Shown here one piece after another: positions 2,139 to 63,921 of a stretch of DNA of 64,000 bases; the stretch's first letter is position 1; each line of letters begins with the position of its first letter. The DNA is from a virus: IMG/VR virus record IMGVR_UViG_3300032282_004151, positions 8,317 to 72,316 of that record; one strand, 5' to 3'. The translations under genes and the position numbers were made by a program. The notes under the pieces were generated by a model. The model worked only from the letters and a program-made list of their open reading frames with translations. It was not told the origin of the DNA and did no database searches.

Positions 2139-2750
2139 ATGAAACTAATAATGGAAAATAATAAACTTGACATAATTGGCGCAAATGCCTGTGGAATATA
2201 TGGGTTCCTATTTCCAGATAATAAATGGTTGGTGGGATATAGCAGTAAAATGTCTGTAAGACTCGGTAGATACTTCTCAGAGGAAAGACTTAATTCCAAA
2301 TTTAAAGATGGATTGTCTAAATACGGATGGGCGCAAATAAAGATATTTGTATTGGAAGAATGTGAAGACAATAAATCAATATTACTTGAAAGAGAAAAGT
2401 ATTGGTCTGAAAAATTGAATTCATTCAATGACGGATATAATGTAGTGGCGTGCGGCTGTGACAGTTTCATAACAGGACGCGAAGGAGGTAAATTACAAAC
2501 TACTGTATATAATGAAGAGTTCAAAGACAGAGTAAGTGAAGGGATGAGAAAGCATCACGCCAACAAAAAGGCCAATGGACCTAAAAAATATAAAAATTGG
2601 AAGAAACTTTATATTTCCGCCAAACAAATAAATCCTAGTATATACCTACCAGAAAATTTAGGTACCCTACCTACTGATACAGAGTTTGGTATTGAATGGA
2701 ACAAGTTAAGTAAGTGGAATAGAAAAAGAGTAGCCAAAAAAATAATTTAG
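2139..2750 (+). CDS. GIY-YIG homing endonuclease-like protein
   Basis: GIYGF..WLVGYS..R..Y; LEREKYW; SFNDGYN. Confidence 0.8.
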   Translation: MKLIMENNKLDIIGANACGIYGFLFPDNKWLVGYSSKMSVRLGRYFSEERLNSKFKDGLSKYGWAQIKIFVLEECEDNKSILLEREKYWSEKLNSFNDGYNVVACGCDSFITGREGGKLQTTVYNEEFKDRVSEGMRKHHANKKANGPKKYKNWKKLYISAKQINPSIYLPENLGTLPTDTEFGIEWNKLSKWNRKRVAKKII

Positions 2751-8268: not shown

Positions 8269-8781
8269 ATGGGATACCACACTGATTTCCGAGGCAAGTT
8301 CGATCTGAACAAGCCCCTTTCTCCTGCTCACAAGGCTTATCTCCTGAAGTTCAGCGAGACGCGCCGCATGAAGCGCAAGCAGACCGTTGCGGCGAAGAAG
8401 CTAGACCCTATCCGAGTTGCGGCGGGACTTCCTATTGGCAAGCAAGGTGCTTATTTCGTCAATGGCGCTGGCTTTTGCGGTCAGGACAGCGATGATAGCG
8501 TCGTCAACAGCAACACCCCTCCCGAGGGTCAGCCGAGCCTATGGTGCCAATGGGTACCGAACGAGGACGGCACTGCCATTGAATGGGACGGTGGCGAGAA
8601 GTTCTATGAGTATGTGGATTGGATTGAGTATCTCATCAAGAACTTCCTAGAGCCGTGGGGTTATGTTCTCAATGGCGAAGTGGAATGGAATGGAGAAGAT
8701 CGTGATGACATTGGTATGATTGCCATTGACAGCAACGAAGTGAAGGTCAAGAATGGTCGAGTTGTTTACGAGGAGGTTTAA
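8269..8781 (+). CDS. conserved-looking phage hypothetical protein
   Basis: MGYHTDF..PSLWCQW..WDGGEKFYEY..LNGEVEWNGE. Confidence 0.85.
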   Translation: MGYHTDFRGKFDLNKPLSPAHKAYLLKFSETRRMKRKQTVAAKKLDPIRVAAGLPIGKQGAYFVNGAGFCGQDSDDSVVNSNTPPEGQPSLWCQWVPNEDGTAIEWDGGEKFYEYVDWIEYLIKNFLEPWGYVLNGEVEWNGEDRDDIGMIAIDSNEVKVKNGRVVYEEV

Positions 8782-9605: not shown

Positions 9606-9680
9606 GGCAGGCTAGAGTATGTGGTAACTCGTCACGCTCATAATGTGAAGCATCGGATTCAAACGCCGGGCCTGCTCCCA
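9606..9680 (+). tRNA. tRNA with CAU anticodon (Met/Ile2), degenerate T-arm
   Basis: cloverleaf, CTCATAA loop, CCA end; A53-G61 mismatch, C discriminator. Confidence 0.7.
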
Positions 9681-13140: not shown

Positions 13141-13219
13141 GCTCTTGTATTGGCTCTGTCTTCTAAACAGATCGCGCATAACTGGATTAATGTGGGTTCG
13201 AGTCCCACCAAGAGCGCCA
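13141..13219 (+). tRNA. non-canonical D-armless tRNA-Arg(UCU)-like RNA with 20-nt variable region
   Basis: GCTCTTG/CAAGAGC-G-CCA; TCTGT-CTTCTAA-ACAGA; GTGGG-TTCGAGT-CCCAC; only 7 nt where the D-arm should be. Confidence 0.75.
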
Positions 13220-24521: not shown

Positions 24522-24562
24522 GCCTTGACAAATTAAAAAAAGTCGTTCAAGATATCTGCATC

Positions 24563-24697
24563 ATGAAGATCAACTCCACCATCAAGACCCGCAGCGTGTT
24601 CACCTCTGGCGTCAACCTCGGCGGTGTGGCGCACAAGACCAAGAAGGGCAAAGGCAGCTATCAACGCAAAAACAAGTATGGCAATCGTTGGGAGTGA
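24563..24697 (+). CDS. arfA: ArfA-like alternative ribosome rescue factor (44 aa, not in ORF track)
   Basis: HKTKKGKGSYQRKNKYGNRWE matches the ArfA KKGKGSY-RK-K motif; own promoter at 24525. Confidence 0.7.
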   Translation: MKINSTIKTRSVFTSGVNLGGVAHKTKKGKGSYQRKNKYGNRWE

Positions 24698-24741: not shown

Positions 24742-24969
24742 ATGAAGCCAATTCGTTATAACCCTGATGGGACTGAAATCCCCCTGACTTCCGGTCAACG
24801 TCGGCGTAACGAACGTGCAAGAGTTTGCAACCGAAAAAGAGAATCGGGATGGAGCGGGGATAGACGACCATGTGATTTGGGTTGTGGTGGAGAAATGTCT
24901 TGGTGCTCTTGTTGTGAAACATACACAAGCACTTGTTGCGTAGATTACGGAACTTGTATGTGTTCGTAA
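24742..24969 (+). CDS. Cys-rich small protein
   Basis: CDLGCGGEMSWCSCC..TCC..TCMC; own promoter. Confidence 0.7.
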   Translation: MKPIRYNPDGTEIPLTSGQRRRNERARVCNRKRESGWSGDRRPCDLGCGGEMSWCSCCETYTSTCCVDYGTCMCS

Positions 24970-24976
24970 CAATTTC

Positions 24977-25036
24977 GGGCCGGTAGCTCAGTGGTAGAGC
25001 GTTTCGTCGTTGGTTCGAATCCAACCCGGTCCATCA
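24977..25036 (+). ncRNA. anticodon-armless tRNA-like RNA with G3-U70 acceptor
   Basis: GGGCCGG/CCGGTCC, perfect D-arm and T-arm, 8-nt linker in place of the anticodon arm; ends A-TCA. Confidence 0.7.
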
Positions 25037-25078: not shown

Positions 25079-25432
25079 ATGAACTCCATTATCTCACCGT
25101 CTCTCGAAAACAAGCCTGTTGTGGTCAATGGACCCAAGGTGGGCGACATTCTGGTCAGCATCAGTGGCTATGAAGCCAGCATTGCTAGTTGGGCCAAGGT
25201 TGTGGGTGTGACTGGCAAGAGCGTCAAGATTGTGCGCTTGCCCGCCGACAACAAGTATACTGGCGGCGGTGGCATGGAATGGATCAGCACGCCCGCCACT
25301 GATCGCATCAAAGGTGATACTGAGACCAAGCGTTTTACTGCTGATGGCGACGGCTATAGGGTCAAGAACAACAGCTACAGCAACTATTATGTTTGGAGTG
25401 GCAAGCCAATTCAGTGCTACAACCATCACTAA
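25079..25432 (+). CDS. hypothetical early protein
   Basis: own promoter; KVGDILVS..VVGVTGKSVKI. Confidence 0.8.
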   Translation: MNSIISPSLENKPVVVNGPKVGDILVSISGYEASIASWAKVVGVTGKSVKIVRLPADNKYTGGGGMEWISTPATDRIKGDTETKRFTADGDGYRVKNNSYSNYYVWSGKPIQCYNHH

Positions 25433-34280: not shown

Positions 34281-35048
34281 ATGTCAAAGAAAAAAAGACT
34301 ACAGAACAAGAAGATAAAACTTGAAGAACAAATTCACCCACAAGTAGTAAAAGACAAAAGTCCAGTAGTCTACCAACGAAACAAGATAGAACATTTCTTA
34401 ACAATATTTCAGAGAGAGTTAACAGAGAAGCAAAAGAAATTTATTGAACTAGCACTTGATAAGAAAGTCAAGTTGCTATTGGTGTCTGGCCCTGCTGGAT
34501 CCACAAAAACGTATCTGTCTGTCCTCGCGTCACTGATGCTTATGAATGAAAAAAAGATCAGTGACATTCTTTATGTGCGCAGCATTGTTGAAAGCGCAGA
34601 TGTTAAAATGGGAACATTGCCGGGCGAAGCTGATGATAAGCTAAGTCCATACAAGCGACCACTCATTGATAAACTTGACGAGCTTCTGCCGAAGGATGAT
34701 ATTCAATTTCTTATCAAAGATAATCGCATCGAAGGATTGCCAGTTGGCTATCTTCGTGGTTTGAATTGGAACGCCAAGGCAGTCATTGGAGATGAAATGC
34801 AGAACTGTACAAAGAAAGAATTGGTCACTCTTATGACCAGAACTGGTGAATTCAGCAAAGTATTCTTGTGCGGCGATCCTCAACAAAGTGATATTGGAGT
34901 ACGCTCTGGCTTCAGAGATATATTCAATTTATTCAATGATGATGACAGCAAGGCAAACGGTATATATACGTTTGAATTCACAGAAGATGATATCTTACGC
35001 AGCGCTTTGGTGAAGTTTATTGTACAAAAGATCAAAAATTTGGGTTAA
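34281..35048 (+). CDS. phoH: PhoH-like ATPase
   Basis: GPAGSTKT, G.LPG, YLRG, DEMQN, TR.GE.SK, GDPQQSD. Confidence 0.95.
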   Translation: MSKKKRLQNKKIKLEEQIHPQVVKDKSPVVYQRNKIEHFLTIFQRELTEKQKKFIELALDKKVKLLLVSGPAGSTKTYLSVLASLMLMNEKKISDILYVRSIVESADVKMGTLPGEADDKLSPYKRPLIDKLDELLPKDDIQFLIKDNRIEGLPVGYLRGLNWNAKAVIGDEMQNCTKKELVTLMTRTGEFSKVFLCGDPQQSDIGVRSGFRDIFNLFNDDDSKANGIYTFEFTEDDILRSALVKFIVQKIKNLG

Positions 35049-47232: not shown

Positions 47233-47847
47233 ATGAGTTACAAAATAGTCAAAAACAAAGATTATCTGCATAAGAAAACAGAACCAGTGGCAACGATTGA
47301 AGAAGGTGAAGCAATAGCAAAACAACTCATCGAAGCACTAGACGAACTATCAAACGGACTTGGATTATCCGCCAATCAAATTGGGATAAACAAGTCCGTT
47401 TCTGTTGTACGCGCAAGAAAAGATGCACAGCCAATCATTCTTATGAACCCAACCATTGTTGAGGCAAGTAAGGAAAAGCTGATATTCACAGAGGGATGTT
47501 TGAGTTTGCCGGGCAAGCTAGTGAATACAATTCGCTCGCTCAAAGTAACCGTGTCTACACTAAATCACGCCAATCCATTACCATTTGGTCCAGATACAAC
47601 CCCAGTTACACAAGAGTCAGTTCGTTCAGACTATGGATTGCTTGAAGCCATCTGCGTTCAGCATGAAATTGATCATACAAATGGAATATTGATGACGGAT
47701 GACGGCGTGAAATTTGTTCAAAAAGTAGAAAAAATGGTGAAGCATGGAAGAAATGATAAGGTTGTAGTGGAAAAAGATGGAGAAACCCAATATATAAAAT
47801 ACAAGAAAGCTCTAGAACTAATAGAGCAAGGTTGGAAAATCATCTAA
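47233..47847 (+). CDS. def: peptide deformylase
   Basis: GLGLSANQIG, EGCLS, QHEIDH. Confidence 0.95.
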   Translation: MSYKIVKNKDYLHKKTEPVATIEEGEAIAKQLIEALDELSNGLGLSANQIGINKSVSVVRARKDAQPIILMNPTIVEASKEKLIFTEGCLSLPGKLVNTIRSLKVTVSTLNHANPLPFGPDTTPVTQESVRSDYGLLEAICVQHEIDHTNGILMTDDGVKFVQKVEKMVKHGRNDKVVVEKDGETQYIKYKKALELIEQGWKII

Positions 47848-63044: not shown

Positions 63045-63099
63045 CTAATAAAGATTAAATTAGACGGTGTTTTTATCCGCCTGTTTGATATTTATTAAC

Positions 63100-63921
63100 A
63101 TGAACCATTTAACTTGTCGCTTATGCGGGGCAGAGGTGCTCCCAAAAATAATGTCAATTCACTTGCGGGCGCACCATCAAGTGAAATTTTTAGACTATGT
63201 AAAAGAAAATATTTGCGATTTTGAGATCTTGTCTTGGAGAAAATGTATAATATGCGAAACGCCAACACGAAAAGTCGGTGACAAGCATCCACCGACTTGT
63301 TCAAGAGAGTGTTTGTCAAAATATAGAAAAACTTTGACGGGTCATAAATCTCCTAGATTTGGATGCAAAAATACAGAAAAATCTAAAGAAATAATGTCCG
63401 ATGTTCGGAAAGAATGGTTAAAAACAAACAACCACCCAATGTTAGGAAAGCAGCATTCCGACGAAACTTTGGACAAGATGTCCAAAGCAAAAATTGGATT
63501 ATACGATGGAGAAAAAAATCCAATGTATGGAAAAAAACATAAACCAGAATCACTGAAAAAGATGTTTGTTTGTCGCCCGATGAATTCTCTCGAATCCAAG
63601 GTGGCAGCGGAACTCGACCGACTTGGACTGAAATACACTTATCAATTTTTCATACACGATGGAGAGTTATGTCGTTCGTATGATTTTAAATTAAAACGCA
63701 GGCCAATAATCATAGAAGCCGATGGAGATTATTGGCACGGTAATCCAAACACCGAACATCATTGTCCGAGTGTCAACGATATTCAAGAAAACGATAAACT
63801 CAAAGAGAAGATGGCCGAGGCACGTGGGTATAAAGTTATTAGATTTTGGGAATCGGACGTGAAGAGAAACCTGTCTATTATAGAAACAAAACTGCGTTCC
63901 GAGGGAATACTCAAGGGATGA
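63100..63921 (+). mobile_element. free-standing homing endonuclease (zinc fingers, NUMOD3, DUF559/Vsr-like nuclease)
   Basis: HSDETLDKMS, NPMYGKKH; YDF..IIEADGDYWH..RFWE. Confidence 0.82.

Follow-up and report, generated by a model that had tools for sequence, protein, structure and literature searches.

The window analysed here is a 64,000-nucleotide stretch (positions 8,317 to 72,316) of the 72,316-base IMG/VR virus record IMGVR_UViG_3300032282_004151, for which CheckV estimates a completeness of 23%. The record is that of a large T4-like phage, with a baseplate wedge protein, PhoH, a peptide deformylase and an SNF2-type helicase. The locus of interest is a 44-codon open reading frame (ORF) on the plus strand, the product of which resembles the C-terminal part of ArfA (YhdL; PF03889), the RF2-dependent alternative factor of ribosome rescue in E. 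coli and its relatives (structures 5u4i, 5mdv and 5h5u). The features to which we refer throughout are as follows.

24525..24553, plus strand: early-type promoter motif, with a -35 TTGACA at 24525-24530, a conserved A-rich extension (AATTAAAAAAAGT), a 17-nt spacer and a -10-like CAAGAT at 24548-24553
24563..24697, plus strand: ArfA-like mini-protein gene, 44 codons plus TGA, with ATG at 24563 and stop at 24695-24697
24563..24619, plus strand: N-terminal module, residues 1-19, from the family alignment
24620..24694, plus strand: basic ArfA-like tail, residues 20-44 (HKTKKGKGSYQRKNKYGNRWE core), from hhalign, the PDB profile search and invariant positions
24742-24969, plus strand: ORF of 75 aa, with a promoter-motif copy of its own
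24977-25033, plus strand: 57-nt tRNA-like gene (Rfam tRNA, 49.3 bits), about 280 nt downstream of the ArfA-like ORF
25079-25432, plus strand: 117-aa ORF, function not assigned by match, found in 10 related loci no more than about 1 kb away from the ArfA-like gene
2139-2750, plus strand: GIY-YIG-type homing endonuclease-like ORF
34281-35048, plus strand: PhoH-like protein
47233-47847, plus strand: peptide deformylase, a second translation-linked gene in the same phage
63067-63921, plus strand: HNH-type homing endonuclease-like ORF

The G+C content is 40-51% in 4001-26000, the early region, where small ORFs, tRNAs and promoters lie, and 33-42% in 26001-64000, the structural or late region. ARAGORN calls six tRNA genes in the window and Rfam gives seven tRNA matches; the two disagree on a tRNA-Met at 9606-9680 (plus strand), called by ARAGORN alone, and on 13141-13216 (plus strand), matched by Rfam alone with 38.1 bits.

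By its baseplate wedge protein the phage is nearest, among named phages, to Microcystis phage Mel-JY01 (43.9% identical, with 98% of the query covered), followed by an uncultured 484-kb phage and by Flavobacterium phages. The mini-protein gene is absent from Mel-JY01 and two other named phages (0/3, with a positive control of 5/5), and the 4 kb around it give no megablast match to named phages. A tblastn search of named phages with the 44-aa protein returns only three Salmonella records at E 1, one of which, when examined, proved to lie between zntR and mscL and to encode ArfA; the same search with the tail of a distant relative returns no match.

A conserved 44-codon gene behind a recurrent promoter motif

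We find the 44-aa ORF in the window exactly as the first-pass annotation had quoted it, with the qualification that the start given there, 24525, marks where the TTGACA hexamer begins and the ORF itself starts at 24563. The frame is very short, is not preceded by a Shine-Dalgarno sequence, and is followed after only 9 nt by the next promoter motif, as might be expected of a chance ORF caught between two promoters. The comparative data speak otherwise. In a search of 5.8 billion proteins all 19 candidates are homologous protein clusters (E 3e-17 to 2e-10), 68-89% identical to the 44-aa protein and, in 18 of the 19, 43-47 aa long. A scan of IMG/VR places relatives at no fewer than 22 distinct viral loci, on contigs of up to 297 kb, and in all 22 the frame is closed by a stop shortly past the basic core. 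Length, start and stop are thus kept across both sets, as is the distance from promoter to ATG, and dN/dS against viral orthologues is 0.05-0.48, below 0.5 in each of the ten computable pairs, the eleventh pair being saturated. The mini-protein gene is under purifying selection. A family profile search finds exactly one copy per record in 5/5 related records, and a weak search for longer or fused versions of the protein found none among five candidates. We give next to no weight to the chance-ORF reading, which the 19 clusters, the 22 viral loci and the dN/dS values rule out: the 44-codon ORF is a real, conserved gene.

The promoter motif upstream belongs to a recurrent series. Its 19-nt core, TTGACAAATTAAAAAAAGT, occurs in three exact copies within 540 bases, at 24525, 24706 and 25044, and in seven copies when up to three mismatches are allowed, against 0.10 expected. 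An extended form of the motif (TTGACA, an A-rich run ending in GT, and a -10-like hexamer) marks 11 plus-strand sites between 4955 and 25540, all of which are followed by an ATG, 35-39 nt from the T of TTGACA, that opens an ORF wherever checked. Such spacing would imply leaderless or nearly leaderless early mRNAs. At the mini-protein gene the -10-like hexamer ends 9 nt before the ATG, and we infer a transcription start that would leave the transcript with little or no leader. In 9 of the 11 closer viral loci compared, the orthologue is preceded by the same layout. The motif is therefore a general feature of the early region of this phage and is not peculiar to the mini-protein gene. The earlier description of the gene as having its own early promoter holds as far as the recurrence of the TTGACA motif and its conserved placement are concerned; the -10 element is weak, CAAGAT fitting the -10 in only three of six positions, and for this reason the site is not called by a generic sigma-70 scan.

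Several neighbours share this early segment, and Pfam gave no translation-related match for the neighbouring ORFs. The C-terminal third of the 75-aa ORF is very cysteine-rich, and the ORF has no match in Pfam or PHROG. The 117-aa ORF is 92-94% identical to its counterparts in six related loci, where the ArfA-like protein is only 64-68% identical. It carries an invariant Cys and His at its C-terminus, and its AF2 model is all-beta (pLDDT 74.2), with no Foldseek match in the PDB at E ≤ 0.001 and a Gsp amidase domain as the best hit (E 0.09).

The 57-nt tRNA-like gene is not called by ARAGORN. Its acceptor stem of 7 bp includes a G3-U70 pair, both D and T arms are present, and 3 nt stand in place of the 17-nt anticodon arm; the fold z-score is -2.93. 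G3:U70 together with A73 is the alanine identity set, used too by the tRNA-like domain of tmRNA. As a conserved partner of the mini-protein gene it was considered and rejected, since no copy lies within the 4 kb flanking related loci, and of 90 tRNA matches in five records it alone falls below 71 nt. A decayed tRNA gene and a mini-tRNA confined to this lineage are both possible readings.

An ArfA-like tail on a phage-specific head

The 44-aa protein falls into two parts. In the C-terminal part, PF03889 is the only Pfam match, with residues 24-39 aligned to model positions 28-43 of 44. The match to the ArfA family that the first-pass annotation had proposed to look for is present (E 3.9e-5), at a score of 23.4 bits that lies below the cut-off of 25.5. 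All 20 close family members match the same model and nothing else at E ≤ 1 (best E 9.8e-6), as do all ten of the more distant viral relatives, three of which reach the cut-off (L017, 28.1 bits; L023, 25.6 bits; L020, 25.5 bits). Searches of the PDB agree, with E. coli ArfA chains found at E 0.0017 by phmmer with the single sequence, over a 19-residue stretch, and at E 3e-4 with a profile; up to E 10 these searches return ArfA chains, the sole exception being an unrelated row with E 1.1. Of the best 30 matches in the ESM Atlas, 29 lie in clusters carrying PF03889. Other libraries add little: NCBIfam gives no match for the 44-aa protein, PHROGs gives only phrog_37108 (function unknown; E 0.0019), and DUF7230 (PF23876) matches neither the 44-aa protein (E ≤ 10) nor any of the 20 close members (E ≤ 1), its only match being the distant relative L022 at 21.3 bits, under the cut-off of 27.

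A direct comparison of families places this similarity at the level of individual residues. An alignment of 29 viral relatives set against one of 14 enterobacterial ArfAs gives an hhalign probability of 97% (E 1.2e-10), with phage residues 20-44 on ArfA 26-54. Phage K28-G31, S32 and Y33 pair with ArfA K34-Y39, and N41 and R42 with N47 and R48. The residues that are invariant in the phage family, K28, G29, K30, G31, Y33 and R35, fall on ArfA positions that never or hardly vary (K34, G35, K36, G37, Y39 and R41). The E. coli ArfA motif that the first-pass annotation had given proves correct, since PDB chains carry it up to ...GNR and the Salmonella and Citrobacter proteins to ...GNRGNWE. According to passages of PMC5378476, ArfA cut at Asn47 is active and ArfA cut after Met40 is dead. 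As the alignment runs through the equivalents of Asn47 and Arg48, the phage tail holds the part that is needed, a KGKGS basic tail long enough, through the Asn47 equivalent, to fill the mRNA channel.

Short basic tails can converge, which is a caveat on the link to ArfA. A profile of the close family finds 19 short relatives and no bacterial ArfA at a library-wide E ≤ 0.001 among 1.84 billion proteins, so that the link to ArfA rests on about 25 residues. The protein could then be a small basic nucleic-acid-binding protein with no tie to the ribosome, its resemblance to ArfA a product of Lys/Gly-rich convergence. The shortness of the match and the sub-threshold Pfam score would fit such a protein, as would the AF2 model, which, even with the alignment of viral relatives, has no fold (mean pLDDT 66.4, pTM 0.17, no secondary structure). 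Composition alone also scores up to 15.9 bits against an HMM of the 14 enterobacterial ArfAs. The real protein, however, scores 19.2 bits, a value reached by 0/5000 whole-sequence shuffles (maximum 15.9) and 0/5000 tail-only shuffles (maximum 13.9), or none of 10,000 in all. Moreover, the same individual positions are invariant in both families, the similarity continues via GNR..WE to the end of the protein, and three relatives pass the curated Pfam cut-off. We therefore regard convergence as very unlikely and interpret residues 20-44 as homologous to the ArfA tail.

The N-terminal part is of another kind. Residues R10 to G20 (RSVFTSGVNLG, in a motif of about 12 residues) vary little or not at all in the 20 close members, making the head the most strongly conserved part of the phage family; wider viral relatives have looser versions of this stretch. 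No counterpart of residues 1-19 is found in positions 1-27 of the Pfam ArfA model, the hhalign alignment begins at ArfA residue 26, and a search of 185,579 species genomes for the RSVFTSGVN pattern confirms no locus. This bears out the first-pass remark that the N-terminal part is divergent, and adds that it has a conserved sequence of its own. In ArfA the corresponding region holds a minidomain in which Ala18, and Leu19, Leu24 and Phe25 set against RF2 Trp319, explain both RF2 dependence and activation, as described in passages of PMC5378476. The hydrophobic minidomain that sits on the RF2 switch loop (Ile11, Ala18, Leu19, Leu24 and Phe25) is not found in the phage protein. Because ArfA residues 1-25 have no aligned partner in the head, RF2 recruitment cannot be transferred to it from ArfA.

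Expression layout and relation to known rescue factors

ArfA is disordered off the ribosome, and the phage protein, similarly small, is likewise predicted to be unstructured alone. The two share a basic tail with the KKGKGSY.RK.K.GN..WE core, in which phage residues 20-44 pair one by one with ArfA 26-52, and differ in the N-terminal region, where a 19-residue phage-specific head replaces the minidomain of residues 1-25. They also differ in wiring. The phage-encoded gene ends in a normal stop, its TGA coming right after the last aligned residue at the equivalent of ArfA Glu52, as the first-pass annotation had proposed in placing a real stop just past the active core. We find no terminator-like site or hairpin inside the ORF (24563-24697), the RNA fold of which is unremarkable (z-score +0.81); the ArfA arrangement of a non-stop mRNA, with a terminator or RNase III hairpin before the stop, is thus not seen here. 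Mature ArfA is 52-55 aa long, as stated in a passage of PMC6299226. Since it stops normally at the equivalent of the mature ArfA end and holds neither a terminator nor a hairpin, the phage gene would lie outside tmRNA control and should be expressed constitutively from the early promoter, which supports the "pre-truncated, free of tmRNA control" layout. As judged from sequence, then, the protein falls strictly outside ArfA, in Pfam score, in N-terminal minidomain and in non-stop wiring. The first-pass identification of an ArfA-like factor is upheld for the C-terminal 25 residues, and not for the protein as a whole, which stays under the Pfam cut-off and lacks the ArfA minidomain.

ArfT of Francisella tularensis (40 aa), which works with RF1 or RF2, offers a precedent for a factor that ends in a stop and evades control by tmRNA. 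It is described, in passages of PMC6299226, as having a normal stop, no non-stop wiring and a short basic C-terminal stretch that recalls the KGKGS of ArfA. The phage protein might then dock as ArfA does and use its head to accept both RF1 and RF2, or the release factors of a non-proteobacterial host. Its length of about 40 residues, its normal stop without non-stop wiring and a head unlike that of ArfA would all suit such behaviour. So would the host range suggested by its relatives, as the nearest cultured phage relative, Mel-JY01, infects a cyanobacterium, and the tail has relatives in bacterial chromosomes. A scan of 185,579 species genomes yields nine of these, in Clostridia, Verrucomicrobiota and a Peribacteria MAG, groups that lie outside those where ArfA is known. 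They have other heads (the phage-family head is found in 0/9) and, in the cases inspected, normal stops. Against this, the phage tail has the ArfA-type sequence KKGKGSY, and the ArfT motif KKGGSTNKK, by which alone the two tails were compared and which is taken from passages of PMC6299226, is absent from the 44-aa protein. We consider ArfT-type behaviour unlikely, yet still a live alternative.

Among the chromosomal tail relatives, L054, L055, L057 and L058 (Verrucomicrobiota) and L051-L053 (Clostridia) are small ORFs with an HK.KKGKGSY tail, and the Verrucomicrobiota copies have a strong terminator hairpin directly 3' of the stop.

BrfA (YqkK) of Bacillus subtilis, an RF2-dependent rescue factor, is a small protein that places a basic tail in the mRNA channel and recruits a release factor (PMC6881298 and PMC11633108), much as proposed here for the phage protein. 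It is made from a non-stop mRNA, and the phage gene is not so wired. A structure of BrfA is presumably in the PDB; neither the single-sequence nor the profile search of that database returns a BrfA chain at E ≤ 10.

Phage genes have been annotated as ArfA before, namely g10 of Citromicrobium phage vB_CbaS-RXM (PMC8953757) and gp30 of Pelagibacter phage HTVC027P, the latter highly expressed early and late in infection (PMC12753301); the passages of these two papers that concern the genes give them as annotations and report no activity. Both are small proteins of about 58-60 aa that match PF03889 (29.2 and 19.4 bits, respectively), and neither carries the RSVFTSGVNLGG head: in RXM g10 an ArfA-like NPAFRQR stretch is retained ahead of the tail and the C-terminus is extended by hydrophobic residues, and HTVC027P gp30 has yet another head. 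The literature searched, which left most subscription journals outside its scope, contains no functional study of a phage ArfA. A phage ArfA is thus not new as an annotation; the value of the present family lies in a defined variant with a distinct head and in its co-occurrence with a phage tmRNA.

Possible action on stalled ribosomes

Related records carry further genes of translation and rescue. A tmRNA above the Rfam cut-off is present in four of the five records that carry the gene and have a completeness of at least 60%, and in 5/22 records overall; by order of search, these are four of the first five records, the exception being the window's own 23%-complete record, and one of 17 further fragments. 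The tmRNAs (related records G001-G004 and G008; loci L025-L028) are full-length and score 84-123 bits, and for three of four loci ARAGORN calls tags of 25-31 residues ending in LAAA, LVAA or AVAA, with none called in the fourth. The tmRNA lies about 4.5 kb from the ArfA-like gene in one fragment and far from it in large contigs. Relatives have 9 to 34 tRNA matches per record; SmpB and the RF-1 domain are each found in 0/5 records. The phage lineage invests in translation and rescue, which fits a role in rescue better than one in blocking.

The protein probably acts on stalled ribosomes. The explanation towards which we lean, at slightly better than even confidence, is that the protein, made constitutively, senses non-stop ribosomes in the manner of ArfA and prompts release via a host release factor. 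On this model an early gene of a T4-like phage would yield an intrinsically unstructured, two-part protein of 44 residues, the C-terminal 25 of which would descend from, or share ancestry with, the ArfA tail. The tail would thread into the empty 30S mRNA channel of a ribosome that has run to the 3' end of a broken mRNA and stalled there, a binding mode suggested by the aligned core, and the 19-residue phage head would stand in for the RF2-activating minidomain of ArfA. Peptidyl-tRNA would then be released through a host release factor, putatively RF2, RF1 or both, and ribosomes would return to the pool during infection, a presumed benefit as host and phage mRNAs are cut. The early promoter would have the protein made constitutively, and not only upon failure of trans-translation.

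The first-pass annotation had also raised the opposite outcome, inhibition. The ArfA-type tail would dock in vacant mRNA channels and the head would fill the A site without activating a release factor, so as to hinder factors of rescue or surveillance in the host, such as tmRNA-SmpB, ArfA- or ArfB-type factors or A-site abortive-infection nucleases, or to hold ribosomes idle. That binding without release can occur is indicated by the ArfA A18T variant, which retains RF2 binding and loses release (passages of PMC5378476), and the phage head does not align with the activating minidomain of ArfA. The head is also the most conserved part of the protein, suggesting a specific partner, which need not be RF2. 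The gene content of the relatives points the other way, however, as they carry their own tmRNA with normal-looking degradation tags, an indication that rescue is promoted, and, in the five records searched, no phage release-factor or SmpB gene by which the phage might escape its own block. We rate a blocker as possible, if unlikely. Doubtful to a like degree is a more novel arrangement, in which the ribosome-sensing tail of ArfA is joined to a new, invariant head of about 12 residues with a different output, such as plugging the A site of empty-channel ribosomes against host factors of rescue or defence, or recruiting a partner other than RF2. If true, this would be a viral ribosome effector built on the ArfA tail, and the tail would serve as a portable "stalled-ribosome address" which phages whose hosts lack ArfA have put to new use.

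Bacteria cannot do without ribosome rescue, which is also a target for antibiotics, and the known release-factor-dependent rescue factors, ArfA, BrfA and ArfT, are to our knowledge all bacterial. Being only 44 residues long, the phage peptide is easily synthesised and could be tested in existing non-stop ribosome assays. A phage family that has kept the sensor tail, swapped the head and dropped tmRNA control would show how viruses handle stalled ribosomes in the course of takeover, and would serve as a natural experiment to tell the part of ArfA that senses the stall from the part that activates release.
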